DNA from: Planctomycetota bacterium
GTDB taxonomy: Bacteria; Planctomycetota; UBA8108; UBA1146
Assembly: GCA_012960845.1 (NCBI GenBank)
Contig: DUAN01000189.1
Coordinates: forward strand, 2,942 to 66,941
Reading direction: 5' to 3'
Length of the DNA stretch: 64,000 nucleotides
Notes under the pieces: generated by a model
What the model saw: only the letters and a program-made list of their open reading frames with translations
The model's database searches: none
What the model was told of the DNA's origin: nothing
Shown here: positions 12,597 through 34,630 of the stretch, one piece after another
Layout: every line of letters begins with the position of its first letter
Numbering within the stretch: position 1 is the first letter of the stretch
Position numbers and translations under genes: made by a program

Positions 12597-12711
12597 ACTT
12601 CCGATCCGGGTTGCCCCGAATCAATCCTGTCACGGCTCTAGATACAGAACCTTTCACGACGGTTCAAGGGCCAACAGTTGAAATCCGTCAGATCCAGGCC
12701 GACAATGTGGC

Positions 12712-13845: not shown

Positions 13846-14364
13846 TCAGGGGGACTCCAGTCGAATACTTCGCATCCTGGGAACAATCTGGCGAAAGACT
13901 TCCTCGCTCCCCTGACCCCTGGATATCCACATCACATGGATCTCGACCAGCAACTCATCGATGTAATCATCGCTCGGAATGGTGCGATAATTGACATCTC
14001 TTTCGCCATCGCGATCTTGCCTGACGCTCACGATCAACTTGTCTCGCCCCTGTTGCTTGGAAATGGTGCCGTATCGCACTTCGACAGAAATCCCCGGCCA
14101 GTGAGCGAGCAGCGGGTCCCACGGAGGATTATTGATCAAATCAGTGACCGTTCCGCCGTCGCGGATCGTCCCCTCAAGGGCGGACAGAACCACCTCCGAG
14201 ACCTCGATGGCGCGGATTCGATCGACCGCACGTCGATGAGATGCCGTACCTGCGGCAAACAGAGCGATCGCGGCGCTGATCCCCACCGTGAGGATTCCCA
14301 GAGCCACCACGACCTCGAGCAGGGTGAACCCGGTTTCCTTGCTCTCCATCTTCATCGTTGCCAC
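13846..14364 (-). CDS. GspI-like minor pseudopilin (prepilin-type N-terminal cleavage/methylation domain)
   Basis: Class III signal: KETG|FTLLEVVVALGIL with Glu+5; small 150-170 aa protein; last gene of pseudopilin operon. Confidence 0.7.
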   Translation of the reverse strand: MATMKMESKETGFTLLEVVVALGILTVGISAAIALFAAGTASHRRAVDRIRAIEVSEVVLSALEGTIRDGGTVTDLINNPPWDPLLAHWPGISVEVRYGTISKQQGRDKLIVSVRQDRDGERDVNYRTIPSDDYIDELLVEIHVMWISRGQGSEEVFRQIVPRMRSIRLESP

Positions 14365-15434
14365 CCCGGATCCCTGGCCCCTGGGATCCTCACCGTCTTA
14401 CGGAATTCGGAACCGTGGACGACAAACCGAAGACGGGAGTGCTCCACCGCAGTGGTGCCTCGCATCCCTCTATCACAGTCGAGAAAAGCACCACTGGTGA
14501 GCCGCCCCACTCGAATCCATTCAGAGTCGATACGGATGTAATTGTCGGGACCGATCGGATACTGAGCGGTCGAATCGACGAGGATGTCTCCGCTACTCCC
14601 GTCGATATCCTCACTCAGTCGGGCAAGTGCAGCGGAACGGGCCGGTTTCAGCACCAGCAACACCTCGACAGTATCGGGAAAGACATCATCGAAGGGATCA
14701 TCTCGGCTTGCTGAATCCCAGTAGATTCCCGACTGGCGGTCCATCGGCAAGATGCCCCGCGTCGAATCCCAGAAGGAAAGCGGTGGTTGCACCTTGCCAG
14801 CGACAAAGCGACGACGATCTCCACCCCAGAACGACCATTCGATGTGGAGTACTCCATCTGCGATGGGACGGCTGCGCCGCGGCGTCCCGTCGACATCCGG
14901 CGCCAGGTTGACATCATTGAACAGGGTACCTTCGCCCCCGATAGGACTCTTGAAGCCTCTCCACAACACCTCGGACCCCTCCTCGGGTCCCATCGAGTAA
15001 CTGACCTCGCACAGGCCACCCGGGGCGCGCAGAATTCCCAATCGAGCTTCCATCGAGTCATTATTGTAATCGATATCGGCGAGACCACCGGTGAGAGATC
15101 CAGCAATCCGGGTTATCGGGTTCCTGACCTCCTCGTCGAGCACGCTGACCATCCTCAAACGGGATCGCCCCCGGCCATCTCGGTCACAGAGCAGCAAGAC
15201 TTCGACCAGACCACCACCGGGTCCCGGATCTGGTTGTGAGAAGAGTGATCGCAGGTCGGCGCAGAGAGGCTCGAGGATCGCTTCTGCTCGCTCGATCGAT
15301 TCGCGTCTCGATTCGCCGACTTGCCAGGTGGAGATGCCATCTCTCAGGAACACGACAAGACCGCTACCGAGCATCACGAAGATACCCAGTGCCACCAGAA
15401 TCTCGATGAGGGTCAGTCCCTGTTCTTTGTTCAT
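14352..15434 (-). CDS. GspJ-like minor pseudopilin; start at MNKEQG|LTLIEIL (TGATG overlap with upstream stop)
   Basis: Prepilin-type N-terminus with Glu+5, GspJ-like helix following; stop/start overlap with giant upstream gene. Confidence 0.65.
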   Translation of the reverse strand: MNKEQGLTLIEILVALGIFVMLGSGLVVFLRDGISTWQVGESRRESIERAEAILEPLCADLRSLFSQPDPGPGGGLVEVLLLCDRDGRGRSRLRMVSVLDEEVRNPITRIAGSLTGGLADIDYNNDSMEARLGILRAPGGLCEVSYSMGPEEGSEVLWRGFKSPIGGEGTLFNDVNLAPDVDGTPRRSRPIADGVLHIEWSFWGGDRRRFVAGKVQPPLSFWDSTRGILPMDRQSGIYWDSASRDDPFDDVFPDTVEVLLVLKPARSAALARLSEDIDGSSGDILVDSTAQYPIGPDNYIRIDSEWIRVGRLTSGAFLDCDRGMRGTTAVEHSRLRFVVHGSEFRKTVRIPGARDPGWQR

Positions 15435-18400
15435 CAGTACGGATATTCCTCGTGATGAAGGATTCGCCACTCCTTACGGTGTTCGATTCCAAGGGTCTTC
15501 AAGACGGGAAGATGTTTCCATTCATCATTCCACACCCCCGACTGTCGAGTTTGGCCATGGGCTCCTTTTCGGTGACGGTAGTGGATTCGAATTTCCAAGG
15601 CATCGCCAAACTGTCCCAGACGATTGACATCGGCCGGATCGTCAAACAAATAGAGGCCACCAGGCTGATTGGTCGGAATCGAGTCCCACCCGGGAACGCC
15701 ATCGAATCGAGCGAGAACCCTGACCGATCCTGCGGTGGCTCGATTGCGAGACTGTTCCACTTCCCAGCGGATTCGATCCCACATGGTTCCGGGCATCGTC
15801 CAGGCTCGCTCGAGGTACTGCAGATCCTTCGATTCCACCAGTGGTTGATATCGATCGTGATGTCGAGCGAGCAGTTCGATGACTGGAGTACCGGCGGGTT
15901 GGACCTTGAAATCGGTACCGAAGCGACCACGGAAAATTCCTTTTCCAGTACGATCATCGCGAAACAGCCCGAAGCTGCTGCCCTGCGCACCGGTATGAGC
16001 GATGATCTCGTCTGGAGTCGTAATGATGCCGTCATCCACCAGCAGGTAACCCTCGCCGGAGGGGAAGCCGGCCAACTGACGATTCCCACCTTCGTTTCCG
16101 GGAGGCCCCATCACCTCCAGAGTCAATCCTGATTCTGCGACCTGCCCGGCGAGCCGAGCCACCGGAATACTGGGGAGGGGAACCAGAGGTTCTCGTCCCA
16201 GTTCATTGCTGGTACGTTCGGTGGCGAGCATTCCTCGGGTCATCACATCGATGATGCGGGAGGGAATCAACCGCAACCGATGGGTGTTGGTCACTACCTG
16301 AACAGCGCCTGCAGCATCGGTATATGACCACTGATAAACATAGCCACCCACCGAAGATCCCAACTGACCACGCAACACATTGCGCAGTACACCGTTCGAT
16401 GCTTGTTCGTAGTACAGCACTTCGTTGGTCGGACCACTGATCATTTCGAGGAACCCACCATTGGGTGGAAGGTTGGCCGTGTTATCGACCTGGATCGAGT
16501 TGACCACTTCTACTCTCAGATCACGATTGGGGTCATAGGGAACCACCTCCCCTTCACCCAGGGCGTTCTCGTCAAGGTAGGGATCGCGGGGCAGATCCTG
16601 CTCCAGTTGGATCACCACATCGGGCTCGACCTGGCCGGGATCAAAGGTGTAGTGCATCACCTCATCATCGACCTGGAATAATCCTTCTCGCTTGCCCAGT
16701 CCAAATCCTCGAGGATCACCTTTGGAAAATGTTCGAACACCTCCCGTGGGCAAACTGGCGCCACTTTCCGGACCCTGCGGTTGCGGAGCAGAAGCGGTGA
16801 GTTTCGATCGAGCCAGCAAGTGGATCCTGTCGAGGACACCACCCGGTTGTTCGGAATCCTGTTTCGAATAGCCGCTTTGAATCACCTCGGTACGCACCCC
16901 CGACGGTAAGCCAGGCGACGCCTGGATCGCCATCGTGCGGAATCCACCATTGGAAGCCGCAGGAAATGCATAGGTTTCAACATCACTCGAGTCAAGGCGG
17001 CTGAAACGCACTTCGTCGAGGGTCCCCGGAGCATCGATTCCATCGCCACTGATCATCGATGACCCGAAACGAATCTCCCCGTTGGTCGAGGACGGCAACC
17101 CACCGCTGGGGAATCGACGGATCCGTGGATCCTGTCCCGGACGATAGATCCCTTCCGGAGGCCAGTAGAAACTGACATAGGTTCCACTATCGGTTTCTCT
17201 CACCTTGCGAACTCTCAGCGGCGTATCTTCCCGAAGTCTGTTGGTCGGATCGCCATAGCCATCTCCGAGGATCACCTCGTCGGCAAATCCAGCGGATGCC
17301 CCGACTGCGCGGACCACCTGGGTGATCTCCTGCCCCGCGGCATGACGGACGATGCCATTCATATCCCACAACGGGCGATTTCGACGGAATGGATCACCGG
17401 TGTTGATGTACTTGTCTCCGGTGAAGCCGCGAAATGCATCGACCTGATCGGGATCACAGATGAAGAACTTCCCCTCGGCAATTTGTGTGTATCGAATCCA
17501 CTCTGCATCTTGCAGTAGTCCGATACTCTGGGAACCGGGCATGTAATCGATCTGGATCACGCCGGAAGGCGCGTAGCTTTGATTCAAATCGGTCGCATTC
17601 GATTCAATCGAAACACCCCTGACCTGCAGAGTCGTTGTGGAAGTGGCAGTGATGATCCCGACGGTCGCCGTAGAGTTCAGTAAAGCTCTACCCATGGCGG
17701 TGAATCGATAAAGGCCAGGAACCGGTCCCGGAGTGATGGAGGAATACTTGGCGAATTCAGTTGCGACCAGCCGCCTCGGCTCGGTTCCCTGCTGGGTCCA
17801 TTGTCGAATGTGAAGATATCCCCGAGGTGGGAAACCCAGTTCGAGAGGATGGCTCCCATTGGTCTGCACCAGCAGCGAGAGCGAGTTGGCGGCAAACGGC
17901 TCCAGTTCCAGGGTGCTGGTCACCGGACTGCCGACAGAGAATGGAACCTGTGTCGAGGCTCGGGAAAATGTCGCTGGAGTCAGTTCCACTGCACCGTTAC
18001 TGGTGTTGAAGGCGGAAACTCTCATCGTTGGAGTGACCTCGATCTCCAGCGAAGCTCCCCCCGGACCGATGATGATGTCGTTGGAAGAATCGGTCAGAGC
18101 ACGTCGCGGATCGGAGTTGGCAAGGGGTAAGGAGTAGCCCAGAAGCCTCACGGGAGTACCGGAAGCATGACTCGACCGAACCGTCCCGCGGACACCGCGT
18201 CCGATCGGAGGAGAGCCGTTGGGACCTGGCGGCCGGACGATGAAGGAAGCCCCTTCCCGACCGGAGTAATCGATCGCTTCCGACCCCACCAGCAGAGTCC
18301 CGTTGGGAGGAAATCTTGTGGCCATGTCGCCATCGACGATGGAAACACGGTTACCGGAGAAGGAAAGGGCGCCATTGAGACGAGATAACCAGGACTGACG

Positions 18401-21175
18401 ACCGACCGGACGACGATCGATCAGCAGCACCAGATCTCCCGGCCTGGTCGATCTCCAACCGGCAGAGATGTGGTACCAGGTATCATCGGCGAAGGTGGTA
18501 GTGGTGACCGAGTGTCGCACCTCAGCTGCTGGAAGCACCTTGCTATCCCATGCAACTGCGGAACCGGTCTCATCAAAGACTTGCAGTACCAACTCCTGTG
18601 TATCCCCGGAGAAGAACAATCTCACACGATCGCGATAGCGATCCAGAGTCGGGCCTACCGAGTCAAAAATGATGCGATTGCCACTGCGCGATCCCCAGCG
18701 CGGGCGATACCAGAAATCGACCATTGCAGGAACTGTCGAAAGAGCGTCGTTGTTGGCACCCTGATCCGGCGTCAATTCGATTTGCGGCTCTCGCAATCCC
18801 CGCCCCCTGCGACCACCGCCTTGAGTCGGGTCAGCTTCTTGCTGTAGAAGAATTGAGCGCTTCCACGAACCATCTTCCAGTTCGTATCCTTCGATGGTCT
18901 CGTTGAAATGCTCGACCTCGAGCAAGCCCACCGCTCCGAATCCGTAGTTTCCAGAATCTCGATCGTAGGCGATGGTCTCCCCACGAAGAGTTCCCTCATC
19001 GAGAGAGGGACCGGTGAACTTTCGACGGTTGAGGGGGATCGGCCCACTGACCACAAGGTTCGACGCCCTACCGGGAACGAAAGTCGTATTGAAACGAGAA
19101 AAGCGCCCCCCTCCCGGATCCCGTGTGGCATAGATGGAAGCCCAATCCTGCTGAGTTTCTAGCCTCAATGAGAGCGGATCGGGAGGTGCGACCTCGATCA
19201 CTTCACGATACCGGACTGTCGCTTGCGGAGTACCCACAGGACTCCTGGCAACACCGGTAGACTCCACCGTGTAGATCTCCGATGTCGCATAGCAAAATCC
19301 AGTGGTAGAGATGGAGAGTCGTGGCTGATTTGGATTCAAGGCGTTGATGAGAATCGATTCTGAATCACCCCCATCGAGGACACCACTCAACTGAGCAGCT
19401 TCCACCACCTCACGAAAAGCAGCAAAACCAGAGATCGGCATCGCCTCCAGCAAGAGATCGGTCAACCCGCGAGCCTCTTTGACGGTCACTCCATTGAAGT
19501 TCTGCTCGAATCGATCGGTAGAGAGACCGGTCAATACCGCCTCGATGACTCTACGAGGGGCGGTGTTGATGTTGATGGGGTGCCTCAGTGCGGCACTGAC
19601 CATCGCCTCACGCTCAGCCCACTCGAATTTCAACGGCTCCTTGAGTATCACCCCGCCCTGGAAGATGGCTCCAGTTCCCATACCTCTGAATCCGCCCCGA
19701 GGAGTCGGGAACGCCCCGGCAGCAAGGCCGTACTCCACCTTGGAAGGATCATTGATACTACGAATCCGAACGACCGTCCCCGGATTGAAGAAGTCATATC
19801 GTGGAAGTCGCATCTGTGGCACTCCCAGCAGCGCACTATTGGTGATCTCGCCCTCGACCATCTGTTCCTGCGACCAAGCTCTTGGCTGAGTTGAGCTGGT
19901 AGTGATCAGGTCGCGGATCTGTTCAAACTCGAATGCCGAAAATGTTTCCATACCTGGGATATCGAATATTTCCTGGTAAGCGAGGATGGCACTGGGGAAG
20001 TAGGACTTGCCGCGTTTCTTGATCTTCTTCAGCTCTGGCGCGATGAAAGTCAAATACACACCTTTGAATGCATTCCCCCTGGCCTTGGTCAGACCAAACC
20101 CTTCGACCACCTCGGCCGCTTCGATCACTGCGGCTTTACCGCGAATCGACTCGAGCAGATCGACCACTTCCTTCGGGATATTATTATCGAGGAACAACTT
20201 TCGTGCCTTGCGATACTCTGCCTCGTCTACCTCCTCAGGCTCTTTCTGGAGCAAGGAAGGATCGATTCCAGCGCGCACCAGCATCTCGGTGGTCAGTCCC
20301 CAGTCCGCCATATTTTCAAAACTCAGGCCGACCACAGCAAGGGTCTGGAGGAAGTAAGGCACCACTGACCAATCGGCAATCTGGCGGATTCCAATCGGAG
20401 TACGAAAAGTGGCGATGTCTCCGTCCGAAAGGTTGGCGAGTCGGTGCAAGAATACCTTCAAGCCGCGCAGATCGAAGACCGGCCACCCTTTCTGGTGCTC
20501 CCATGTCCCCGACAAGTACTGCCCCCGGAAGATTCCGGTCAATGCCTTTTCGGTCTTGCCTGTGTAGGAGATCGCCTCGACAGTGAAGAAGAGCGGATTG
20601 AGGATCACGACCACACCATCCACCGTCTCCGGATCATCATCCGCAGGAAAGGACGAGGTGTCGTCGAGTGGCAATTCACCAATATCCGTTTCATAACTGA
20701 TCGCTTCTGAAAGGTGACTCCCGGCCAGCATGTTGCCGATGAGATTGGGCATCGCAGAGTTGATGTTGATCTTACCCTGCTCATCGGTCACCCGAGCATC
20801 GAGGATCACAGCAGAATCACCGCGCATCTGGAAGACCTCCGGCGCTGTGCCGACCACCGGCACGGAGGTGATCGTTGCGGGAAAATCGACCTTCAGTTCG
20901 TCGAGGCCGTCGATCAGATCTGGTGCCTCTGTACCGGGTCTCCACCGGTCTCGTTCACGACTGTGGTGGGTATCAAATAGTTTACTCAGAGCATGGCTCC
21001 TGGCACTTTGCGCTGCGAGACTCGCTCTTTGTTGCGCCAGTGATCGAGCGGCGCCTTTTTCCTGAAGTTTCATCGAGATCACGAATGGAGTGCCGATCGC
21101 GGCCAGGGCGGAAAGCACCAGGATCACCATCAACAGGGCCATTCCCCGCTCACGATACCGTATTAAATTATCCAC
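15434..21175 (-). CDS. giant (1913 aa) GspK-like minor pseudopilin / tip-like protein with large extracellular insertions
   Basis: N-terminus RERG|MALLMVILVLSALAAIG, prepilin-like but lacking Glu+5 as in GspK; two GspK-type helix-hairpin-helix motifs (KININSAMPNLIGNML and HPININTAPRRVIEAVLTGLS); single uninterrupted 5.7-kb ORF. Confidence 0.75.
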   Translation of the reverse strand: MDNLIRYRERGMALLMVILVLSALAAIGTPFVISMKLQEKGAARSLAQQRASLAAQSARSHALSKLFDTHHSRERDRWRPGTEAPDLIDGLDELKVDFPATITSVPVVGTAPEVFQMRGDSAVILDARVTDEQGKININSAMPNLIGNMLAGSHLSEAISYETDIGELPLDDTSSFPADDDPETVDGVVVILNPLFFTVEAISYTGKTEKALTGIFRGQYLSGTWEHQKGWPVFDLRGLKVFLHRLANLSDGDIATFRTPIGIRQIADWSVVPYFLQTLAVVGLSFENMADWGLTTEMLVRAGIDPSLLQKEPEEVDEAEYRKARKLFLDNNIPKEVVDLLESIRGKAAVIEAAEVVEGFGLTKARGNAFKGVYLTFIAPELKKIKKRGKSYFPSAILAYQEIFDIPGMETFSAFEFEQIRDLITTSSTQPRAWSQEQMVEGEITNSALLGVPQMRLPRYDFFNPGTVVRIRSINDPSKVEYGLAAGAFPTPRGGFRGMGTGAIFQGGVILKEPLKFEWAEREAMVSAALRHPININTAPRRVIEAVLTGLSTDRFEQNFNGVTVKEARGLTDLLLEAMPISGFAAFREVVEAAQLSGVLDGGDSESILINALNPNQPRLSISTTGFCYATSEIYTVESTGVARSPVGTPQATVRYREVIEVAPPDPLSLRLETQQDWASIYATRDPGGGRFSRFNTTFVPGRASNLVVSGPIPLNRRKFTGPSLDEGTLRGETIAYDRDSGNYGFGAVGLLEVEHFNETIEGYELEDGSWKRSILLQQEADPTQGGGRRGRGLREPQIELTPDQGANNDALSTVPAMVDFWYRPRWGSRSGNRIIFDSVGPTLDRYRDRVRLFFSGDTQELVLQVFDETGSAVAWDSKVLPAAEVRHSVTTTTFADDTWYHISAGWRSTRPGDLVLLIDRRPVGRQSWLSRLNGALSFSGNRVSIVDGDMATRFPPNGTLLVGSEAIDYSGREGASFIVRPPGPNGSPPIGRGVRGTVRSSHASGTPVRLLGYSLPLANSDPRRALTDSSNDIIIGPGGASLEIEVTPTMRVSAFNTSNGAVELTPATFSRASTQVPFSVGSPVTSTLELEPFAANSLSLLVQTNGSHPLELGFPPRGYLHIRQWTQQGTEPRRLVATEFAKYSSITPGPVPGLYRFTAMGRALLNSTATVGIITATSTTTLQVRGVSIESNATDLNQSYAPSGVIQIDYMPGSQSIGLLQDAEWIRYTQIAEGKFFICDPDQVDAFRGFTGDKYINTGDPFRRNRPLWDMNGIVRHAAGQEITQVVRAVGASAGFADEVILGDGYGDPTNRLREDTPLRVRKVRETDSGTYVSFYWPPEGIYRPGQDPRIRRFPSGGLPSSTNGEIRFGSSMISGDGIDAPGTLDEVRFSRLDSSDVETYAFPAASNGGFRTMAIQASPGLPSGVRTEVIQSGYSKQDSEQPGGVLDRIHLLARSKLTASAPQPQGPESGASLPTGGVRTFSKGDPRGFGLGKREGLFQVDDEVMHYTFDPGQVEPDVVIQLEQDLPRDPYLDENALGEGEVVPYDPNRDLRVEVVNSIQVDNTANLPPNGGFLEMISGPTNEVLYYEQASNGVLRNVLRGQLGSSVGGYVYQWSYTDAAGAVQVVTNTHRLRLIPSRIIDVMTRGMLATERTSNELGREPLVPLPSIPVARLAGQVAESGLTLEVMGPPGNEGGNRQLAGFPSGEGYLLVDDGIITTPDEIIAHTGAQGSSFGLFRDDRTGKGIFRGRFGTDFKVQPAGTPVIELLARHHDRYQPLVESKDLQYLERAWTMPGTMWDRIRWEVEQSRNRATAGSVRVLARFDGVPGWDSIPTNQPGGLYLFDDPADVNRLGQFGDALEIRIHYRHRKGAHGQTRQSGVWNDEWKHLPVLKTLGIEHRKEWRILHHEEYPY

Positions 21176-22562: not shown

Positions 22563-23197
22563 GGCGCCACATCGTCCGAGTCTGCCGCCTCGTCAGAATG
22601 CATCTGGTGAATGCCATCGGGACCTGCAGACCAGATCTGAAATCTTAGCGGTTCGTGAAAGGTCGCAGTCTTCAGAGAAGTCCCCGCCTGGATCTTGACC
22701 GGTCCAGTTTCCTGGGTCACGGAGTATTCGATCCCGTAGTCTCGGTTGTGCATGTAGACGTAGGGAACACCCCAGGGGTCGACATACTCCCGCAACTGAT
22801 CATCTCCGAAGACCCATCGCATCTGCTGATACAGATCCGCGTTTCGCAGATGATCCTGATCGAGGTTTTCGAGAAACTCTTCCTTGAACTCAAAGTAACT
22901 TCGGCCCCTGGATCGACTGGCGAGATGGGCCACCAGACTCTCATTTCCCTCGTCGAGGCCGTTGCCAGAGATCTCGTATTCCTTCTCCATCGAACTGGGA
23001 GGGTAATCTCCAAAATCGAGTTGATAGGTCTCAACGCCCAGCACCAACCTCTGCATCTCCTGCTCGGCCAGTCCGATGGAACTACTCTTGATGGCGAAAC
23101 CGACCATCTTTGAACCGAGTCCAGCCAGAACACCGATGATGGCAATCACCACCAGCAACTCGACCAGGGTGAATCCAGCTCGTGGAGAAGAAGTCAT
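22556..23197 (-). CDS. gspG: GspG-like major pseudopilin (type II secretion / type IV pilin-like)
   Basis: MTSSPRAG|FTLVELLVVIAIIGVLAGLG with Glu+5, followed by GspG-like EQEMQRLVLGVETYQLDFGDYPPS segment. Confidence 0.8.
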   Translation of the reverse strand: MTSSPRAGFTLVELLVVIAIIGVLAGLGSKMVGFAIKSSSIGLAEQEMQRLVLGVETYQLDFGDYPPSSMEKEYEISGNGLDEGNESLVAHLASRSRGRSYFEFKEEFLENLDQDHLRNADLYQQMRWVFGDDQLREYVDPWGVPYVYMHNRDYGIEYSVTQETGPVKIQAGTSLKTATFHEPLRFQIWSAGPDGIHQMHSDEAADSDDVAPW

Positions 23198-25528: not shown

Positions 25529-25911
25529 TGCGACTCCTCATCTTCATCGACTGCCACGGGTATCTTCAGTTCAGCTCGCAAGCGGGTTCTGGGGTCCCCG
25601 GAGACCAGTGCTGGCAGTGGGATTCTGCGCGGCACGGAGCTCACTGGAGGTTCCCCGAGTAAATCCGCCGGAGCAGGTTTCCAATCGCTGACACTGGCGA
25701 ATGGATTTCTGGCCGCCTCGATGGGAGCCGGCTCATACCACTCCAGCCTCACCAGCCCTCCGACAGTTCCTCCATCGCTCGATTCCGGTGTCCGCAGATC
25801 GACAGCCGCAAGTGGATCTTCCAGGATGTAAGTCTTTGCCAGTCCCAGAAGATTCAGCAGCAAAAATCCAAGACAGAGGACGCAGAATCCTTTTTCGATA
25901 TTCCAGCGCAT
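25525..25911 (-). CDS. small membrane-anchored hypothetical protein (PilP-like position)
   Basis: N-terminal hydrophobic helix FCVLCLGFLLLNLLGLA; translationally coupled within operon; no domain recognised. Confidence 0.4.
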   Translation of the reverse strand: MRWNIEKGFCVLCLGFLLLNLLGLAKTYILEDPLAAVDLRTPESSDGGTVGGLVRLEWYEPAPIEAARNPFASVSDWKPAPADLLGEPPVSSVPRRIPLPALVSGDPRTRLRAELKIPVAVDEDEESQ

Positions 25912-26717
25912 CAGAACCCCCTCCTCGAACGGTCAGAACCCCTTCGAGTAGAACTCGACTCCACTCGGGGGTCTTCCATGTCGATCCCGACTACCGTCAA
26001 TTCCACTTCGATCTTGTCTCCACCAGATTTCTCAGGGATCACCCGGATCGGCTCCAGTGACAGGAATCCGCCATTTCTCTGGAAACGAAGCAGCATTTCT
26101 GCCAACTGTTCCGGCAAGCAGAGCATCTTGACCTGGAGGGGATAACGCGCGAGTACCTTGTCTGGATCTTGTAGCGCTTCCTGAATCCTCTTCGCCGGGT
26201 TCACGTCATCGAGACGCGCCACCCCGGTCTGAAGACAAACCCTGGTAAATCGATCGAGCACCTCCAGCAAGCGATATCGATCGGACCACTCCAGTAGAGA
26301 CAGGTCCGATCGCTCATCGAAATTCGGTATCTCAGCCGGCGTCACCATGCCAGCGCGATTGGCTTGGTTTCTGAAGTTGTTCCAGACCAGATCCTTGGCG
26401 CGCTTGAAGTCGGTACTGACAGATGCTTCATCGACCGATGGCTGGTGTACCGCAGAATAGGCAATGCCTAGTTTCTTGAGGAGATCCCGATTGCGCTCCT
26501 CGAGAGCGGTCCGGGATTTCCTCTCCACATCGACCACTCCTTCGAGCCCCTCGAGATCCTGAGCGACCAGTTGAGCATCCTCTTCATGACGAGCCAGGCT
26601 GATCTCATGCTCAGAGCGATAACCCCGGGTCACATTGGATATCACGAGAAAGATCGCCAGTGCGGAGAGAGCCTGGATCAAGACCTTACGATTTTTTTGC
26701 CAGATTTCCTGCATCAT
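25911..26717 (-). CDS. GspM/PilO-like bitopic inner-membrane assembly protein
   Basis: Single N-terminal TM (VLIQALSALAIFLVISNV), coiled-coil, C-terminal ferredoxin-like region; position after GspL-like gene. Confidence 0.5.
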   Translation of the reverse strand: MMQEIWQKNRKVLIQALSALAIFLVISNVTRGYRSEHEISLARHEEDAQLVAQDLEGLEGVVDVERKSRTALEERNRDLLKKLGIAYSAVHQPSVDEASVSTDFKRAKDLVWNNFRNQANRAGMVTPAEIPNFDERSDLSLLEWSDRYRLLEVLDRFTRVCLQTGVARLDDVNPAKRIQEALQDPDKVLARYPLQVKMLCLPEQLAEMLLRFQRNGGFLSLEPIRVIPEKSGGDKIEVELTVVGIDMEDPRVESSSTRRGSDRSRRGF

Positions 26718-28333
26718 CCTCTCCCCCCGAATGGTGACTTGGTTCGTCGCCTGCCTGGTCCACGGCTACTCTTCTCAGGTAATTTCTCATCCGGAGATAC
26801 CAGGATGCTGAAGGGATAGGCTCCTGACTTCTGATCGTCCGGTGTCGAGCGAACCCTCTCAACACCAGATATCCCCTCGAGGTTTCTCTGCAAGGTCTCG
26901 ATCGCTTCGAGCCCATTGCGACGAGAGTTATCGGACTGGCCGATCAACTCGATCTCGATTCCTATTTTCGCATCACCTACCACCCGGCGAAGGCTGATCT
27001 GCTCCAGTGAAATTTCCGAAGGGAGATCCTGGCGAAGACCATCGAGGATTTTCGCATAAAACTTCCCCGTCTCGATCTCCTGGACGATCCTGGTCTCTCT
27101 CTTGCGAAACACGTCGTTTTTGGTTCGAGCGTCTTCCTCGGCATTACGCCAACTGGTGATATTTCCGCGCCATTTGCGAATCGTTTCCGAGGCACCCGAG
27201 GAACGTCCGGCAGATACCGACACGTCCATCACCTGCAATCCGACGGCAAGAATCAGCGCTGCTACACCTACCCATAGAAATCGTGTGTGATCGCGGAACG
27301 TCCTGCGCTCGCATTCGGCGCTGGGTAACAGATCGACGATCTGCTCCTCCGAATCGAGCGCTGCTGCTGCGGTTCCGACTACCAGGGTCCACTGTGGGCC
27401 ATCGGTTCCACTAAAGGAGACTTCCTCGATATCTTTACCGAGCAGATCTCGTAATTCAGCACCGCGACACACCAGTGCCGCTCCGATGCCCGATACCAGA
27501 ATTCGATCTGCCACGACATCGTCAATTTTCAACTGTGCCTGGCAGAAGGTGAGGGAAGAAGTGAGCATCTGTCCCAGTTGGCTGGTCCACCCTCGGTGGC
27601 AGCCAATCATCGCCTCTTCTCCGTCGAGCAGGTCACCCGACGAGAAGGCTTCGACCATCTTGCGCGCTTTCGACTCCGAGACCGAGAGGCGTTCAGAGAC
27701 CAGATCCACCATCCCATTCAGGCCAAATCCAACGGTGCGAGCAAACAACAACCGATTCTCGCGGACCACCAGTACCTGCGTTTCTGCCTCCTGAACGTCG
27801 CACACCAGTACCGTCTGATCGCCACTGTCAGGACCATGGCTGGCGAGGTGCCCATGATAGGCCCCGATTGCAGAAGGCAATGCCAGCTGCACCTGCCCCT
27901 TACTCTCGCGAATCTGATCGATGATGGGCTGGATCACTGCGTCTTTCCCGACCCCTAGCAACAACAATGTGTCCTCGGAAAGGCTTTCAGGGACCAGCAG
28001 TTCGATGTGCCCACCGGAGAGTGCGTCTCCAGTCTTTTCGGCGATCTCCTCGATCTCGTAATGAAGGATCAAATCGAGTCTCCAGGAGGGCACCGGAGGC
28101 ACACTGTGGTAACGCAGAGAAGAACTCTCGCCATCGAGAACCAGCGCGATGTTACCGGTTGGGAATCCCAACTTCGACAGTTCAGCGATCCATGCACCGA
28201 TACTCGACTCATCATCGGGTTTCAACTCGTGGACAGAAGCCACTTCAACGGTGTGACCGACCCCACGTACATGGGCCGCACGCCAGCGATTTTCCTTCAC
28301 CTCGAGTACGGCTACCTGCCCCTTGTAGGACAT
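26714..28333 (-). CDS. GspL-like protein: cytoplasmic actin-like (PilM-type) domain, one TM, periplasmic PilN-like domain
   Basis: N-terminal PilM/GspL-cyto-like region, TM helix FLWVGVAALILAVGLQVMDV, ~150-aa periplasmic tail. Confidence 0.6.
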   Translation of the reverse strand: MSYKGQVAVLEVKENRWRAAHVRGVGHTVEVASVHELKPDDESSIGAWIAELSKLGFPTGNIALVLDGESSSLRYHSVPPVPSWRLDLILHYEIEEIAEKTGDALSGGHIELLVPESLSEDTLLLLGVGKDAVIQPIIDQIRESKGQVQLALPSAIGAYHGHLASHGPDSGDQTVLVCDVQEAETQVLVVRENRLLFARTVGFGLNGMVDLVSERLSVSESKARKMVEAFSSGDLLDGEEAMIGCHRGWTSQLGQMLTSSLTFCQAQLKIDDVVADRILVSGIGAALVCRGAELRDLLGKDIEEVSFSGTDGPQWTLVVGTAAAALDSEEQIVDLLPSAECERRTFRDHTRFLWVGVAALILAVGLQVMDVSVSAGRSSGASETIRKWRGNITSWRNAEEDARTKNDVFRKRETRIVQEIETGKFYAKILDGLRQDLPSEISLEQISLRRVVGDAKIGIEIELIGQSDNSRRNGLEAIETLQRNLEGISGVERVRSTPDDQKSGAYPFSILVSPDEKLPEKSSRGPGRRRTKSPFGGRG

Positions 28334-30894
28334 CAGTTCCCCCTCGCATGGATGAGTTTCAATTCCTGAATCGCAACGGCCGCTCCCGGTGAGCCCGGAT
28401 ACTGATTCAGCAACGATTGAAAGTAGAATCGTGCGATCTCGAATCTGTTTTTACCGAGCGCCTCGTGAGCACGAGCCAGCAACAGTTCCACCTTACCGAC
28501 GGTCAAGAGTTGCTCTGCATTTGTGTTTTCACTCTTGCGCTGATCGATGATTTCCTGCGCCCTCGTGGCCGGATCCAGTCCCCCGAATCTAGCCATCGAT
28601 TCGCGGCAGATCCTTTCGAGATAGGTACCGGTAGGTGACCCTGGAAACTTCGATGAATCCTCAAGGACGGCTGCGATCTGCCCGAGCGCAGCACTGACCT
28701 CGACATCGATGTGGTGCTCGAACTGATCCAGTTTTCGGGCCACGTCGGCTCGCCAGGGGAAATCTGCTCGAGCCTTCTGGATCAATCGAGCCGCATCCCC
28801 CTCGGCCCTGGCATCGATGGCGCGTTCCACCTCGGCGAGAGCCTCCAGCACTCGGGATTGCTCGCGCTCACTACTGGCGGTGAATGAAACATCGAGCGCG
28901 CCTCCGGCGATGATAATTCCTGCGTCCGCCATCCACAGCGTGCCTCGCCCGTCATGGTCAGGGAATACCGAAAACGTCATCGGCTGTTGAAATGTCGCCA
29001 CCATCTGGTCCTTGCCGATTCCGATCGAGATCTCGGTGCCGGAACAGGGCTGCAGATCGGTCCAGCGATCCGCCGAGATGACCAGTTTATTGCCGACAAA
29101 GACCTGCACAGGAGAAGAACCCCTTCGGCGAGGAATCCTCCCGACCAGGATCAATGGAGTGGGGCGTTGCGGAGTCCAACTGGCTGCAATCTTCCAGCCG
29201 ATGGAGCGAGCGAACTGCTGAATCGCCACCTTTCCTTGCCCTAGTTCATCCAGTTCGAAACCGAGTCGAACCGATCCGTCATCCCCGGTGACCACTTGCT
29301 CTCGCCGAACCGGCAGTAACTGCCCCCATGGCATCGCTCTGGGAGGTCCGACCGCCACTCGAAGGTCCGAGATCAATTCCTGCCGTCCCCGCATCAACTT
29401 GCCAACGCCGTAGGCATCGATGGCCAGATCCATCTTCTGTTCATCATCACCTGCGGAAATGACGACCGCTGGATCTCTCCCAGTCTCGACCGCTCTGACC
29501 ACCAACTGGTCGAGCAATAGTTGACCGCTTCCTTGCCCCAGTGCCACCAGCGAGACTCTTGCAGACCCTCCATTTCCCTTCACCGGAGGTGCAAACTCTG
29601 CAGCATGCCCACTCCAGTTCGAGGACGACTTCAAGGAAGAAAACTGTTCGTCAATTATTCGGTCACCTTGATCGCTCGACTCGATCCAACGAACGCAGAA
29701 TCCGATCCGATCGAAACCGACCTTTTGAAGACGAGCACTGAGCCGTAAACCATGACCCTGATCGACCTCGAAGATGGTGTCATACTCGAGGCGGAAAATC
29801 CCCAGTGCATCGGCTTCTCCGCTGCACAAGAGCCACTGCTTCCCCTGTGGAGCCTGGTCGCCTCGTTGAACATCGAGGGTTCCCTCGCCGCTGGCGAGTC
29901 GCCATGGTCCATCGAGTATCGGGCCGATGGGCACCTGTTCGAAATGTCCAGCTCCGGAAAGCCGATCACCCCGGGGGACCACCAGGTCAGGATTACTTGC
30001 GAGATCCTCAATCCACCCGTAGCCAGAGTAGAGCACCACACCCAGTACCAGGATGAAGGAGATGGTGAAGAGCCCCTGAGATCCCTGTGAACCAACATCG
30101 ACCCGGGTACTACGCCCCACTGTCATCTCGGCGGTAGGATTGGCCGCCGACCGGGTCGTCATACGAATGGCTGCTCGCCCATCTCCAGCTGATTTCGACC
30201 GACCGGGAAATCCCATCGCGGTGAACTTCGTCATGCCGATGCGGAATTGAACCCCATCTCTCAGTTCCAGTTTCTTGACCTTCTGTTGCCCCACCACGAT
30301 TCCATTTCCGGAGCCGAGGTCGGACATGTACCACTCACCATCTTGCTCGAGCAGGACGGCGTGCTTGGAAGATATTCTATTGTCCTCGATGGTCACGTCG
30401 GCCTCTTCGGCGCGCCCGATAACCACTCGCCCAACCGCTGGGATCCAGTGATCGATACCGCCATGCTGATAGGCCAGGCAAGGACCGGTGGGTGCAGTTG
30501 TGACAGAAGTTGCTGTGGAAGATGTGGCCGGTGCAGAAGCAGGTGCTGCGATCGGCGTTCGATCGGTATCATCCTCGAGTAGAGCCCCGTCTGTCAATTC
30601 TAGCAGCAACTCCGCATCCCCGATGCAGATGCAATCGCCATGAGAGAGGGTCACCTGGTCGACCTTTTGCCCGTGCAGGAGACTTCCATTGGAGGAAGAG
30701 AGATCCTGATAGATGAAAGCATCCCCCTCCCAGCGAAAAACTCCATGCTTTCTAGAAGCGGCTCGATCCTCGATCACGATGCGAGACCCGGGGTCCCTGC
30801 CGATTGTGATCGGTTCCTGAGAGATGTTGACGATGGTCTTGCGACCGATGTCCTTCACGCGAATCCTGCCACTCATGCTAGTGCTCCCCATCAT
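28333..30894 (-). CDS. membrane protein with two N-terminal cytoplasmic FHA domains, one TM helix, large periplasmic domain and C-terminal TPR-like helical region
   Basis: FHA1 ITIGRDPGSRIVIEDRAASRKHGVF...SSNGSLLHGQKV, FHA2 VVIGRAEEADVTIEDNRISSKHAVL...GSGNGIVVGQQKV, TM LFTISFILVLGVVLYSGYGWI; no P-loop. Confidence 0.75.
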   Translation of the reverse strand: MMGSTSMSGRIRVKDIGRKTIVNISQEPITIGRDPGSRIVIEDRAASRKHGVFRWEGDAFIYQDLSSSNGSLLHGQKVDQVTLSHGDCICIGDAELLLELTDGALLEDDTDRTPIAAPASAPATSSTATSVTTAPTGPCLAYQHGGIDHWIPAVGRVVIGRAEEADVTIEDNRISSKHAVLLEQDGEWYMSDLGSGNGIVVGQQKVKKLELRDGVQFRIGMTKFTAMGFPGRSKSAGDGRAAIRMTTRSAANPTAEMTVGRSTRVDVGSQGSQGLFTISFILVLGVVLYSGYGWIEDLASNPDLVVPRGDRLSGAGHFEQVPIGPILDGPWRLASGEGTLDVQRGDQAPQGKQWLLCSGEADALGIFRLEYDTIFEVDQGHGLRLSARLQKVGFDRIGFCVRWIESSDQGDRIIDEQFSSLKSSSNWSGHAAEFAPPVKGNGGSARVSLVALGQGSGQLLLDQLVVRAVETGRDPAVVISAGDDEQKMDLAIDAYGVGKLMRGRQELISDLRVAVGPPRAMPWGQLLPVRREQVVTGDDGSVRLGFELDELGQGKVAIQQFARSIGWKIAASWTPQRPTPLILVGRIPRRRGSSPVQVFVGNKLVISADRWTDLQPCSGTEISIGIGKDQMVATFQQPMTFSVFPDHDGRGTLWMADAGIIIAGGALDVSFTASSEREQSRVLEALAEVERAIDARAEGDAARLIQKARADFPWRADVARKLDQFEHHIDVEVSAALGQIAAVLEDSSKFPGSPTGTYLERICRESMARFGGLDPATRAQEIIDQRKSENTNAEQLLTVGKVELLLARAHEALGKNRFEIARFYFQSLLNQYPGSPGAAVAIQELKLIHARGN

Positions 30895-32971
30895 TCCCTG
30901 AATTACGCTTCAAACGATACTTCTCGATCTTCTGATCCAGTGTCGGTCTTGAGACTCCCAGTTGTCGGGCGGTCTTGCTCTTGTTCCAGGAGTTCTCCTC
31001 GAGGATGGCAGCGATCACCTGACGCTCCAGGCCCTCGGTCGCTTCTGCCACCAGTTCCCGCAGGGTGCCGCGCATCGGTTCACGATTTTCAGATCCCGCC
31101 TTGGGACCATGCGACAGCACCGATGGGGAGATCGTCTCGGGGACGATGACGTCTTCGGAGAGCGCCACCAGGCGCTCGATCTCATTCTCCAGCTGACGAA
31201 CATTGCCAGGCCAGGGACTGTGATAGAGTGCATATAGAGTTCTCGGATCCATCTTGGGTCGATCTCGATCATGGCGGGAACAGACCTCATCGATGAAGTG
31301 GTCCACCAGCAGTGGAATGTCCTCTCGTCGTTCTCGAAGAGCGGGCAACTGGACCGTCAGAACATTCAATCGATAGTAAAGGTCTTCGCGAAAATTACCG
31401 TTTCGAACCATCTCTTCGAGCTTTTGATTGGTGGCGGATAGGATCCGAACTTCCACGCGAATCGTATCCCGAGATCCGACCGGTCGAATTTCACCATCTT
31501 CGAGAACCCGCAGTAATTTCGCCTGTAGTTCCTTACTCATGTCGCCGATCTCATCGAGGAACAGGGTGCCTCCATCGGCCAGTTCGAAGAGCCCCTTCTT
31601 GTCGCGATGGGCGCCAGTGAAGGCACCCTTCACATGACCGAAGAACTCACTCTCCAGCAAATTCTCAGGAATCGCTGCGCAGTTCTGCGAGACGAAGGGC
31701 TGGTCCTTGCGGTTCGATCCAACGTGAACCGCCTGTGCCACCAGTTCCTTGCCGGTTCCGCTCTCTCCGAGGATCAGCACCGGCATGTCGGTATTGATCA
31801 CGCGATCGAGCAGTTCGAAGACTCGAATCATGATCGGCGAGCGGGTCACGATTCGATCAAAGGAGTGCTTCAGATCGGGTCTGGCCCCTCGTTTGAGTAA
31901 CTCCCGAACATCCTCGGGTTCTACATCTCGAGCAATCAGCATCGCCTGAAATTCTCGGTTCAGCGCCTCGACCTGGTCCTTGGAAGACTGGATCGCTTCC
32001 TGTTTGCGATGCAGTTCCTCGAACAAACGGGCATTCTCGATGTAGATCGCTGCCTGATCCGCGAGGAACTGGACGAAACGGAGAGTCCCCTTATGGAATG
32101 AGTGCTTTTCAAATCGATTATCGACATAGGCGGCACCCAGTATCTTGCCACGCAATCGAAGGGGCACACACAGGACCGACTCCAGCCGCAAGTTTGCGAT
32201 GGAGGCCGATTCATGGAAGCGAGGATCACTTCGTGCATCTCCGGTCAATACCGGCTCACCCGAATCGATGACTCTCCGAGTGAGTGACTGGCTGACCTGT
32301 AGGTGAGCCCTTCGAACCACATCTCGGTCGATGTTTCGGGATGAAGCCACCCGCAGTTCCCCATCCTCCTCGATGATCAAGAATCCCCGCTCCGCTCCAG
32401 AAATCTCGATGATATTCTGAAGGATCACCTCGAACAGTTCTTCCGTCACGAGGATGGCACCGAGGTCCCTGGTCAACTGGAGCAAGCGGAGAAAGATCTC
32501 TCTTTCCTTCTGGAAGCGAATCGGATCCTCGGTGGTGGCCTCTTCTGCGATCGGTTCAAGAAAGTACTCGGTACTGAGAACCAGGGTTTCGCCGGCAGGA
32601 GCATTTTCACGATGCATTTCAGGAATCTCGCCGAAGAAGATCTGAGTCTTGCCGATCTCGATCAGATCCCCGACCATCAAGGGCTGACGCCGAATCAGGA
32701 TCCCGTTGACGAGAGTGCCATTGCGACTTCGCAGGTCCTCGATGTGCCAGCGCCCCTGGATCCTGTTCAACTGACAATGCTCACGGGATGACGAGATGTC
32801 GCCGACCTCGACATCGTTCTCTCGTGAGCGACCGATGGCGATCGATTCTGCATCCAACCGGACACGGCGCTCCCCCGCCATATCACGAATGATCAGCTCA
32901 GCAGGGCTCGCCGCGTGGTTCGGCTGCCCTCCATGTCGTGCTCGTTCAGGCACGTCCAATGTGGTCTCCAT
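30878..32971 (-). CDS. sigma-54-dependent transcriptional activator with N-terminal FHA and GAF domains (FHA-GAF-AAA+-HTH)
   Basis: FHA IAIGRSRENDVEVGDISSSREHCQL...SRNGTLVNG; GAF; sigma-54 activator motifs VLILGESGTGKELVAQAVH, ESEFFGHVKGAFTGA; C-terminal Fis-type HTH. Confidence 0.85.
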   Translation of the reverse strand: METTLDVPERARHGGQPNHAASPAELIIRDMAGERRVRLDAESIAIGRSRENDVEVGDISSSREHCQLNRIQGRWHIEDLRSRNGTLVNGILIRRQPLMVGDLIEIGKTQIFFGEIPEMHRENAPAGETLVLSTEYFLEPIAEEATTEDPIRFQKEREIFLRLLQLTRDLGAILVTEELFEVILQNIIEISGAERGFLIIEEDGELRVASSRNIDRDVVRRAHLQVSQSLTRRVIDSGEPVLTGDARSDPRFHESASIANLRLESVLCVPLRLRGKILGAAYVDNRFEKHSFHKGTLRFVQFLADQAAIYIENARLFEELHRKQEAIQSSKDQVEALNREFQAMLIARDVEPEDVRELLKRGARPDLKHSFDRIVTRSPIMIRVFELLDRVINTDMPVLILGESGTGKELVAQAVHVGSNRKDQPFVSQNCAAIPENLLESEFFGHVKGAFTGAHRDKKGLFELADGGTLFLDEIGDMSKELQAKLLRVLEDGEIRPVGSRDTIRVEVRILSATNQKLEEMVRNGNFREDLYYRLNVLTVQLPALRERREDIPLLVDHFIDEVCSRHDRDRPKMDPRTLYALYHSPWPGNVRQLENEIERLVALSEDVIVPETISPSVLSHGPKAGSENREPMRGTLRELVAEATEGLERQVIAAILEENSWNKSKTARQLGVSRPTLDQKIEKYRLKRNSGNDGEH

Positions 32972-33057
32972 CTTTGGGCTAGGAGTGGCTTCCTGGGACT
33001 CCTGGATGGTCTCACGCAGGAGCCAGATGTAAAGAAGATTTTACAGGGGGGTGTCGG

Positions 33058-34530: not shown

Positions 34531-34630
34531 CCAGAATCCTCCTGGCCTCCGCAAGCCTAGACCCGGAAGCTCGAAATCACAAGGCTGACTGGACGCATAT
34601 CTACGACTAGGATCGAGCAGGAGAATCATC

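Follow-up and report, generated by a model that had tools for sequence, protein, structure and literature searches.

The locus raises the question of what kind of envelope machine, if any, is encoded by eleven contiguous genes in a 64,000-nucleotide stretch of DNA from a Planctomycetota bacterium, which we call the window. We think, with little better than even confidence, that they encode a Planctomycetota-specific, T2SS-flavoured sub-assembly of a type IV filament with a giant, probably ligand-binding tip and phosphothreonine control. All 11 open reading frames (ORFs), named A, B, C, D, E, F, G, H, K, J and I in order, were confirmed on the minus strand between positions 13846 and 32971, and neighbours abut or overlap as the first-pass annotation had described. 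A and B overlap by 17 nt; the B/C and D/E junctions are both TGATG (a 1-nt overlap), C and D share the 4 nt of ATGA, and the E/F junction reads GTGATG; the F and G ORFs abut without overlap, and the G/H, H/K and J/I overlaps measure 7, 8 and 13 nt. The K/J overlap is 37 nt if the longest J ORF is taken; an in-frame ATG 12 codons into J yields both a TGATG junction with K and a 6-residue prepilin leader (MNKEQG/LTLIE, the slash marking the start of the mature protein), and because of this the true start of J is probably at 15434. Ribosome-binding sites resembling GGAGG or GGGGG precede most of the starts. We take this single, tightly packed operon, with the translational coupling predicted from its junctions, to be real.

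The arrangement is not a product of chance, because the same gene order recurs in related genomes (20 GTDB species-level genomes), in 4 metagenome contigs covering K-J-I, and in distant relatives (loci L021, L023-25, L037 and L039-41). The order is kept in more than 25 loci, with protein identity as low as 21-30%, and a core module consisting of a B-like protein, C, D, the TPR protein, G, H, K, J and I is widespread, occurring in roughly 100 clusters at least when these are drawn at 50% identity. The operon is conserved in many uncultured Planctomycetota. Its proteins bear the database names 'hypothetical', 'PilM' and 'LamG domain-containing', and neither these names nor literature searches led to a description of the operon or to an already described canonical T2SS at this locus; it appears to be previously undescribed.

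The assignment of A (30878-32971, 697 aa) as an FHA-GAF sigma-54 activator is well supported by its FHA-GAF-AAA+-HTH_8 architecture. Pfam profiles confirmed the expected domains (Sigma54_activat 243 bits, AAA_lid_14 75, GAF 64, FHA 60, HTH_8 47), its translation has GESGTGKE as Walker A motif, GAFTGA, and GR..SxxH..NG as FHA residues, and A bears every hallmark of an active sigma-54 enhancer-binding protein (bEBP); its identity across the window clade is 71-98%. The start codon of A is preceded, at a distance of 56 nt, by an 18-bp palindrome, TGTAAAATCTTCTTTACA (33028-33045), which may serve the operon as an operator or promoter element. The 64-kb window has a single copy, and exactly one copy is present in every related locus that includes the DNA ahead of the activator gene (19/19), in each case directly before the gene; the variant TGTTAAAAT-N4-TTTACA is kept even where A identity is only 44-49%; related loci without the activator gene lack the palindrome. 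The activator is present in only part of the family, being absent from L039 and L040, and is therefore not a constant of the family. No convincing sigma-54 promoter was found inside or ahead of the operon; candidate -24/-12 sites within F and H fall on conserved Gly and Ala codons.

B (28333-30894, 853 aa) is a well supported double-FHA bitopic membrane protein. Pfam and hydropathy analyses predict two cytoplasmic FHA domains (109 bits in total), one transmembrane segment (residues 274-292) and a periplasmic part of about 560 aa with TPR-like helices at its end. The phosphothreonine-binding residues are kept in all three FHA domains of A and B, and residues G160, R161, S175, H178, N197 and G198 of the second FHA domain of B are invariant in 9 homologs with identity down to 21%. 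B shares its FHA-TM-periplasmic layout with YscD of the T3SS and the gliding protein GltG, and matches Yop-YscD_cpl at 90 bits, but its periplasmic part is unrelated to theirs in sequence and matches no Pfam or NCBIfam family; the L039 homolog carries CBM_4_9 in this part. The neighbourhood of the locus showed neither a kinase gene nor a phosphatase gene.

The next four genes encode a putative membrane scaffold and an exported protein. C (26714-28333, 539 aa) is well supported as a PilM-like domain fused to a transmembrane helix (residues 355-373 in the hydropathy scan) and a periplasmic domain, with the actin-fold part predicted to be cytoplasmic, a topology that recalls GspL, or PilM and PilN combined. 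Its family profile matches the PilM structures 5eou, 3jc8 and 2ych at E 2e-4, NCBIfam gives weak matches to pilM and the Amuc_1101 PilM-like family, and its homologs have precomputed PF11104 PilM_2 annotation; the earlier label GspL-like describes its topology, whereas its sequence matches PilM models rather than GspL. D (25911-26717, 268 aa), with an N-terminal transmembrane helix (residues 12-30) and a periplasmic remainder, is kept at the same position in every related locus. Its position and topology hint at a PilO/GspM-like protein; the proposed GspM likeness found no support in Pfam, NCBIfam or a PDB profile search, each with zero matches, nor did hhalign detect similarity between D and C. 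E (25525-25911, 128 aa) has an N-terminal hydrophobic anchor, detected by hydropathy scan, and a proline-rich tail, and matches no Pfam or NCBIfam family; its identity within the window clade is 52-98%, and in distant loci it measures 122-164 aa, or 556 aa in L021, and is missing from L040. F (23198-25528, 776 aa, probably starting with the ATG at 25525) is predicted to be a Sec-exported TPR protein with a beta-rich C-terminal domain of about 200 aa: its N-terminus resembles a signal peptide ending in ...VEA/QS, and TPR_16, TPR_19 and TPR_14 exceed the Pfam cut-offs, TPR families being the sole matches among 9 F homologs. An NCBIfam match to the T4P protein PilW is weak.

Class III signals occur in five proteins (G, H, K, J and I) rather than in the four counted initially. 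G (22556-23197, 213 aa, leader MTSSPRAG/FTLVE) is well supported as a GspG-type major pseudopilin, because T2SSG lies above its Pfam cut-off (24.1 bits vs 21), the motifs DPWGxPYVY and WSxGPDG...GDD(V/I)xxW are conserved, and the translation contains no cysteine. N_methyl scores 33.5 bits, the G family profile matches GspG 5wda at E 1.8e-10, and TIGR01710 gspG reaches 42 bits, under the family cut-off. K (15434-21175, 1,913 aa, leader MDNLIRYRERG/MALLM) is a giant GspK-type cap pseudopilin that lacks Glu+5, as had been noticed at first reading. Pfam returns just a weak T2SSK motif; the GspK assignment survives testing, as does that of G, with residues ~10-665 forming a GspK core into which a large helical segment is inserted, followed by a LamG domain (~815-1010) and all-beta sandwich domains (~1150-1913) that resemble CBM, discoidin and tail-fibre domains. 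K is conserved over its full length, with 63% identity where B has 35% and C 48%, a pattern easier to reconcile with a conserved ligand than with an adhesin that diversifies.

The remaining minor pseudopilins are H (21168-22562, 464 aa, leader ...EVG/VTLME), J (14352-15470, 360 aa from the probable start at 15434) and I (13846-14364, 172 aa, leader ...KETG/FTLLE). H has a weak N_methyl match and a LamG-like globular part, for which Laminin_G_3 scores 23 bits, under the cut-off of 27.6; the homologs in L040 and L041 have unmarked Laminin_G_3 matches. Its NCBIfam matches to GspH, XpsH and Verru_Chthon D are confined to the N-terminus, as are those of J (N_methyl 24.4 bits), which is GspJ/PilW-like by position and size and is kept after K in L033-L036 and L037. 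I (N_methyl 26 bits) is GspI/PilV-like: its N-terminus matches PilV at 24.5 bits and gspI at 22 bits, both under cut-off, and the L037 homolog reaches 34 and 28 bits. Position, topology and N-terminal signals thus suggest tentative labels for H, J and I, and the earlier names GspH-like and GspJ-like are positional. At the sequence level, no family assignment is supported for D, E, H, J, I or the periplasmic part of B.

A secretin, an ATPase, a platform protein and a prepilin peptidase are all missing from the 64-kb window and from within 10 kb of the related loci, and because of these absences the operon is a sub-assembly, incomplete as an apparatus. The earlier proposal of a co-transcribed-looking type IV filament (T2SS/T4P-like) module with an FHA/sigma-54 front end is supported, whereas a distinct, self-sufficient apparatus was an overstatement. 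The operon could be the gspG-M half of an ordinary T2SS split over loci, a periplasmic piston driving folded exoproteins through a secretin encoded at another site, with cargo recognised by the LamG domains and the giant K; we find this doubtful, though deserving of serious weight. As in the ETEC Gsp and P. aeruginosa Xcp systems, one GspG-type major and four minor pseudopilins with class III signals adjoin L/M-like proteins in a tight operon, which is the T2SS complement; a bitopic protein whose cytoplasmic domain is actin-like precedes a second bitopic protein, the cap has a GspK fold without Glu+5, and both G and K are of T2SS type, not T4aP type. The T2SS tip complex touches both cargo and secretin, and Planctomycetota do have secretin genes, which adjoin a PilM-like gene; these secretin-linked PilM-like genes form a paralogous group separate from C. 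However, the sequence of the L-like protein is of PilM type and the M-like one has no detectable similarity, GspC is missing, gspD/E/F/O are absent within 10 kb at all of the more than 25 loci, and the order G-H-K-J-I, after the L/M-like genes, differs. The exported TPR protein, the double-FHA protein, the FHA-GAF sigma-54 activator, the LamG domain of H and a cap about six times normal size (1,913 vs about 330 aa, with LamG and beta-sandwich additions) are foreign to T2SS, and the lectin-, CBM- or tail-fibre-like domains that make up most of K fit the binding of an external ligand better than the pushing of cargo. We regard as unlikely a retractile, T4aP-like surface pilus for adhesion, twitching or DNA uptake, with pilMNOP-like and fimU-pilVWXY1E-like genes and K as a fused PilX-PilY1 equivalent. 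The P. aeruginosa and M. xanthus loci (pilMNOPQ and fimU-pilVWXY1E) do share a PilM-like scaffold, a TPR accessory protein (F is weakly reminiscent of PilF, PilW and Tgl), a four-minor-pilin priming set and a very large tip-associated protein, and I matches PilV as well as GspI. T4aP genes are also normally scattered, with ATPases and secretin at other loci, and PilR provides a known case of pilin genes under sigma-54 control. Yet the major subunit here is GspG-type, without a disulfide-bonded D-region, the role of large tip protein falls to a GspK-fold pilin rather than to a separate PilY1 beta-propeller, PilT, PilB, PilC and the secretin PilQ are not encoded nearby, and the regulator is FHA-GAF instead of a PilS/PilR pair.

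That no filament forms at all, the prepilin-like proteins being membrane-anchored periplasmic or surface proteins of a sensing or enzyme complex that merely borrows the prepilin peptidase pathway, a use proposed for many planctomycetal DUF1559 proteins, seems to us very improbable. Planctomycetota have large families of prepilin-like proteins that do not assemble, the locus encodes neither motor nor pore, and most globular parts match no Pfam or NCBIfam family; nevertheless, no SBP_bac_10 match was found at E<=0.1, so the pseudopilins are not DUF1559 proteins, the set is exactly one major and four minor pilins with a Glu5-less GspK-fold cap, G carries GspG polymerisation-type motifs, and the pilin genes are constantly linked to a PilM-like scaffold gene across related loci. 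Prepilin-type proteins are also grouped with a very large protein in the PVC 'Verru_Chthon cassette' A-D (TIGR02596-02600) and with a long PilM-like protein in the Akkermansia Amuc_1098-1102 PilM-like/secretin cluster (NF045709), and G, H, J and I give weak N-terminal matches to Verru_Chthon cassette B, C and D, as does C to Amuc_1101; but all of these fall far under the family cut-offs, and K has no match to cassette protein A. The coupling of FHA domains to a type IV filament, found here, has a precedent in the Kil contact-killing apparatus of Myxococcus xanthus, a Tad-like machine in whose gene clusters FHA-domain proteins are unusually frequent, which suggests control by Ser/Thr phosphorylation (PMC8460266). 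Kil is Tad-type, however, with a CpaF-like ATPase fused to FHA, a CpaG/H platform, a short secretin and Flp-type pilins (PMC8460266), none of which the operon has.

We therefore return to the T2SS-flavoured filament sub-assembly. Its inner-membrane scaffold would comprise C, D, E and F. On the C/D part, if the tip complexes of T2SS and T4aP are a guide, K, J and I may form a priming complex in which H acts as adaptor; G would polymerise below it, completing the pilin set of one major, three minor (H, J and I) and one cap protein, so that K caps the fibre. A Ser/Thr kinase signal would be read twice by the phosphothreonine-reading control layer, by A to switch transcription and by B to position assembly or to gate it. 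A parallel is the P. aeruginosa H1-T6SS (PpkA/PppA/Fha1), where FHA reading of a phosphothreonine signal by Fha1 triggers assembly of an envelope machine; that machine is of a different type, and the operon has no kinase or phosphatase gene close by. An ATPase, a platform protein and a prepilin peptidase, probably together with a secretin, would be supplied from elsewhere in the genome to drive and release the fibre. At the fibre tip, the LamG and beta-sandwich domains of K may bind a conserved ligand, most likely a glycan or particle surface, and if the fibre is external, the 200-kDa K cap would need to cross the outer membrane.

Eleven ORFs, all on the minus strand, fill window 13846-32971, and every junction between them is overlapping or abutting, much as the first-pass annotation had described. 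In transcription order they encode A (697 aa), an FHA-GAF sigma-54 activator; B (853 aa), a double-FHA membrane protein; C (539 aa), a PilM-like protein with GspL topology; D (268 aa); E (128 aa); F (776 aa), a TPR protein; G (213 aa), the major pseudopilin; H (464 aa), a minor pseudopilin; K (1,913 aa), a giant GspK-type cap; and two further minor pseudopilins, J (372 aa in its longest ORF) and I (172 aa). The B/C and D/E junctions read TGATG, the C/D junction ATGA and the E/F junction GTGATG; F and G abut, and the A/B, G/H, H/K and J/I overlaps span 7-17 nt. At K/J, an in-frame ATG gives another TGATG junction together with a short prepilin leader for J, and for this reason we place the start of J, probably, at 15434. 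Most of the start codons have a purine-rich ribosome-binding site ahead of them. The flanks are unrelated, with a convergent holA-like gene downstream and, directly upstream, a Peptidase_S13 gene (window 33058-34653, minus strand) for a PBP4-type D-Ala-D-Ala carboxypeptidase/endopeptidase. The S13 gene takes this place both in the window clade and in L021, a distant locus, but not in L023-L025; it may act with the operon in peptidoglycan remodelling, or stand next to it by coincidence.

The pilin set resembles that of a type II secretion system (T2SS). G scores 24.1 bits against Pfam T2SSG (cut-off 21) and 42 bits against the NCBIfam equivalog TIGR01710, under its cut-off of 88.85, its family profile matches the GspG structure 5wda, and it carries the conserved motifs DPWGxPYVY and WSxGPDG...GDD and zero cysteines; on these T2SS features it classes as a GspG-type major pseudopilin. 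H, J and I have class III signals with Glu+5. Their matches, to GspH/XpsH for H, to PilV/GspI for I and to no specific family for J, are confined to the N-terminus and fall below cut-off. The LamG-like domain of H is likewise below cut-off in the window protein, and is unmarked in the homologs. K has a conserved leader of 11 residues ending in Gly (RERG|MALLM), with Met and not Glu at +5, as in its homologs. Its residues 9-141 match the NCBIfam GspK model NF037980 (E 3.9e-9; 36.5 bits, far under the equivalog cut-off of 130), and the Pfam T2SSK helix-hairpin-helix motif and Laminin_G_3 recur in K and its homologs; Foldseek and PDB sequence-profile searches with K were negative. Judged by T2SS features, a prepilin leader without Glu+5 and a pilin fold into which a helical domain is inserted, K classes as a GspK-type cap pseudopilin. 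It is conserved over its entire length, and more strongly than the scaffold proteins, with 63% identity against 48% for C and 35% for B. The suggestion that the pseudopilins might instead belong to the DUF1559 prepilin-like family came out negative, since none of G, H, K, J and I matches PF07596 (DUF1559/SBP_bac_10) at E<=0.1.

Two observations concern relatives of these proteins. A relative of K, P0243 (1,396 aa, L038:10001-14191), has the T2SSK helix-hairpin-helix motif and LamG and lies outside any pilin operon, with a separate FHA protein encoded 2 kb downstream. In L033:6020-6451 and L034:11107-11538, I lacks a 28-residue internal segment found in the window protein while J is 97% identical, indicating that the globular part of I tolerates large indels.

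The cytoplasmic domain of C matches the PilM structures 5eou/3jc8 in the PDB (family profile, E 2e-4), and C gives 19 bits against TIGR01175 and a further match to the Amuc_1101 family; its homologs bear PF11104. A transmembrane helix at 355-373 is followed by a periplasmic domain. The matches are to PilM families and not to T2SSL, and point weakly but consistently to PilM ancestry, while the topology is that of GspL. D, with one N-terminal transmembrane helix, is GspM-like in topology only, and searches of Pfam, NCBIfam and the PDB detected no homolog of it; a relationship to the periplasmic part of C as a PilN/PilO-type paralog was rejected (hhalign probability 0.3%). E also has a single N-terminal transmembrane helix and no Pfam or NCBIfam match, and PilN, PilO and PilP models match neither the C-terminal part of C nor D nor E. 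F, the TPR protein, is predicted to be Sec-exported. Among the ORFs of the 64-kb window scanned with Pfam, none encodes GspD, GspE, GspF, GspC or GspO; a secretin, an ATPase of GspE/PilB type, a GspF/PilC platform and a prepilin peptidase are all absent from the ORFs tested. The gene tables of related loci likewise show none of these Gsp components within +/-10 kb. Motor, platform, peptidase and pore would have to be encoded elsewhere, so the module is a sub-assembly and not an autonomous apparatus; the earlier proposal of a distinct and complete apparatus went too far.

A word-indexed search with C returned only 20 close relatives, all from marine Planctomycetota metagenome-assembled genomes (MAGs), and a second one, started from 40 aligned relatives of C, added nothing new. 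The wider family was found by an unindexed profile (HMM) search, which returned 761 cluster representatives at 50% identity, 92 of them at E<=1e-30 and mostly 530-580 aa long; all named representatives are Planctomycetota MAGs carrying the annotation 'PilM'. The operon order is identical in 20 GTDB species genomes, the upstream S13 peptidase gene included, and four metagenome contigs hold F-G-H-K-J-I followed by a convergent holA. JAAZXB01, PAIH01 and DCAA01 are among the MAGs with the operon. Among distant relatives, L021 and L023-25 have the operon in full, A and B among its genes, and their giant proteins measure 1,960-1,969 aa; L037 runs from B through I, with a K of 2,002 aa; L039 has the core and the double-FHA B without the activator; L040 has the core without the activator and no FHA match on record for the protein in the B position; and L041, whose contig begins at C, has the core from C on. 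The first-pass annotation is largely right in its description, but its view of the FHA/sigma-54 front end as defining the system is too strong, since L039 and L040 lack the activator.

When the top 150 C-family representatives were sorted by BLAST against seeds of known context, 98 were of the giant-K type, 15 of the secretin type and 37 ambiguous, and the one ambiguous representative checked was of the giant-K type. The homologs of K fall into 35 clusters. In 31 of these, lengths are 1,533-2,048 aa and identity to K is 30-100%; the other four, the most distant, are shorter (1,182-1,419 aa). Overall, the module is conserved in about 100 or more clusters at 50% identity, and the samples behind them are marine, engineered and soil. 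One C-family member, P0041, which aligns full-length with the L021 protein at 37.5% identity, is encoded on a 9,179,496-bp NCBI/ENA record, a closed genome that may represent a cultivable carrier of the module. The whole operon is also present, at 57-86% protein identity to the window, in L018 (QNYK01000100.1), labelled 'Bacillota bacterium MAG 7' and almost certainly a mis-binned Planctomycetota contig.

The longer and more distant C-family matches (651-1,027 aa) are a paralogous group in another context, beside a secretin, two unknowns and UbiA. In L026:7856-13570, L027:6461-15588 and L028:7856-14309, the order is Secretin, such a long PilM-like protein, two to three proteins without annotation, and a gene of the UbiA family; this cluster may be a secretin-bearing machine that cooperates with the window module.

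A matches Pfam Sigma54_activat with 243 bits, AAA_lid_14 with 75, GAF with 64, FHA with 60 and HTH_8 with 47, the FHA and GAF domains lying at the N-terminus, and GAFTGA and the Walker A GESGTGKE are intact in the translation; by these NtrC-family features it classes as a complete sigma-54 enhancer-binding protein. B has two FHA domains (109 bits together), a transmembrane helix at 274-292 and a periplasmic part of ~560 aa with no family match. The GR, SxxH and NG residues of the phosphothreonine pocket are present in all three FHA domains (one in A, two in B), and those of the second FHA domain of B are invariant in 9 homologs, down to 21% identity, a pattern from which phosphopeptide binding is predicted for both proteins.

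The short intergenic region before A contains an 18-bp palindrome, TGTAAAATCTTCTTTACA, at window 33028-33045. It has a single copy in the window and exactly one in each related locus whose sequence extends upstream of the activator gene, is kept even where A is only 44-49% identical (variant TGTAAAAT-N4-TTTACA), and is missing from loci without the activator. This conservation and co-occurrence argue for a functional cis-element tied to A, a candidate operator or upstream activating sequence (UAS). It could be the binding site of A itself, because its TGT-N12-ACA form recalls the TGT-N10-ACA sites of NifA, a GAF-containing activator; alternatively, it could combine an extended -10 promoter and an operator that overlap. 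Scans for TGGCAC-N5-TTGCW (up to two mismatches in the window; GG and GC fixed in all loci) gave no intergenic GG-N10-GC site and no convincing sigma-54 promoter, and consensus promoter and terminator scans of both operon ends gave nothing. Recurrent GG-N10-GC sites in F (window 23597-23612) and towards the end of H were rejected as sigma-54 promoters because they lie on conserved codons (G-T-R-[VI]-A at the F site) and vary at synonymous positions. Most plausibly, the FHA layer would link a Ser/Thr kinase signal to transcription via A and to assembly via B. The Fha1/PpkA pathway of the Pseudomonas type VI secretion system offers a parallel. A published one is the FHA-rich Kil machine of Myxococcus (PMC8460266).

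Three other features of the window may be recorded here. A cobalamin riboswitch (Rfam RF00174, 70.8 bits; 12465-12602, minus strand) lies ahead of two NHL/beta-propeller-type ORFs (10968-12596 and 9634-10986, with Vgb_lyase, NHL and SGL matches), an unusual cargo for a B12 riboswitch. A single ORF of 936 aa (55358-58168, minus strand) fuses a 5'-nucleotidase (Metallophos and 5_nucleotid_C) to a concentrative nucleoside transporter, complete in Nucleos_tra2_N, Gate and Nucleos_tra2_C, and would couple nucleotide dephosphorylation to nucleoside uptake. Two paralogs in which a VWA_3 domain comes after HEAT_2 repeats are encoded 50 kb from each other (1250-3079 and 51861-53564, both minus strand).

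The module holds an alignment scaffold like PilM/N/O (or GspL/M), a TPR accessory protein, a major subunit and, as a complete priming set, the minor subunits, its pilins are of the T2SS type, and its cap is a 200-kDa, lectin-rich protein. Most likely, it forms a fibre that presents K at the tip for ligand binding, with motor, platform, peptidase and pore supplied from elsewhere. The main rival is a classical secretion piston, with which the module shares the GspG and GspK subunit types; however, C, of GspL topology, is of PilM type in sequence, D has no match beyond its GspM-like topology, and GspD/E/F/C/O were found neither among the window ORFs scanned nor within +/-10 kb in its relatives. 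A retractile pilus like the type IVa pilus (T4aP), the second rival, would fit the weak but consistent PilM similarity of C. Against it, the window scans gave no ATPase, platform or secretin in the place of PilB, PilT, PilC or PilQ, and a T4a system has a major pilin with a disulfide-bonded D-region and a PilY1 propeller as tip protein, whereas G is cysteine-free and GspG-like. Proteins of the Verru_Chthon cassette (TIGR02596/02598/02599/02600) match at the N-terminus only, with 12-29 bits against cut-offs of 51-256, and neither K nor its homologs match Verru_Chthon protein A.

As a tip-presenting fibre, the module might be connected to the crateriform structures of Planctomycetota, from which pili-like fibres emerge that bind dextran and, by one proposal, deliver intact polysaccharides to the periplasm (PMC5394234). 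According to a 2025 review, the genes, players and mechanism of these fibres are still unknown (PMC12673574). That the module builds these glycan-binding fibres is a speculative but attractive link, and we regard it as improbable. Under it, the lectin-like K and the LamG-bearing H would capture polymers, and FHA phosphothreonine signalling would couple capture to assembly, retraction and expression.

All parts of the module are of known kinds, namely type IV filament proteins, FHA domains and bacterial enhancer-binding proteins. Their combination is undescribed in the libraries and papers searched: the GspK cap is giant, H bears LamG, the L protein is of PilM type, the scaffold has a double-FHA member, an FHA-GAF activator comes with its palindrome, and motor and pore are absent. 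In other bacteria, scaffold, accessory and pilin genes lie in separate loci, whereas here they form one module, and the filament tip, elsewhere served by a separate protein such as PilY1, would here be served by a six-fold enlarged GspK cap. Our literature searches found no prior description of the module.

Few envelope nanomachines have been studied as thoroughly as the type IV filament machines; to our knowledge, almost nothing is known of the latter in Planctomycetota. The module represents a large unnamed family, kept across its many clusters, and what would be a new route to a functionalised filament tip, in which the GspK cap has grown to 200 kDa while remaining conserved throughout and rich in lectin-like domains. 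It would also be a second case, after Myxococcus Kil, of FHA/phosphothreonine control on type IV filament machines, here joined to a sigma-54 activator and to a palindrome that is conserved and resembles an operator. A genetic test may be within reach, since one family member is encoded on a closed genome of 9.18 Mb. Should the fibre bind polysaccharide, the operon would provide a genetic handle on macromolecule capture in Planctomycetota.
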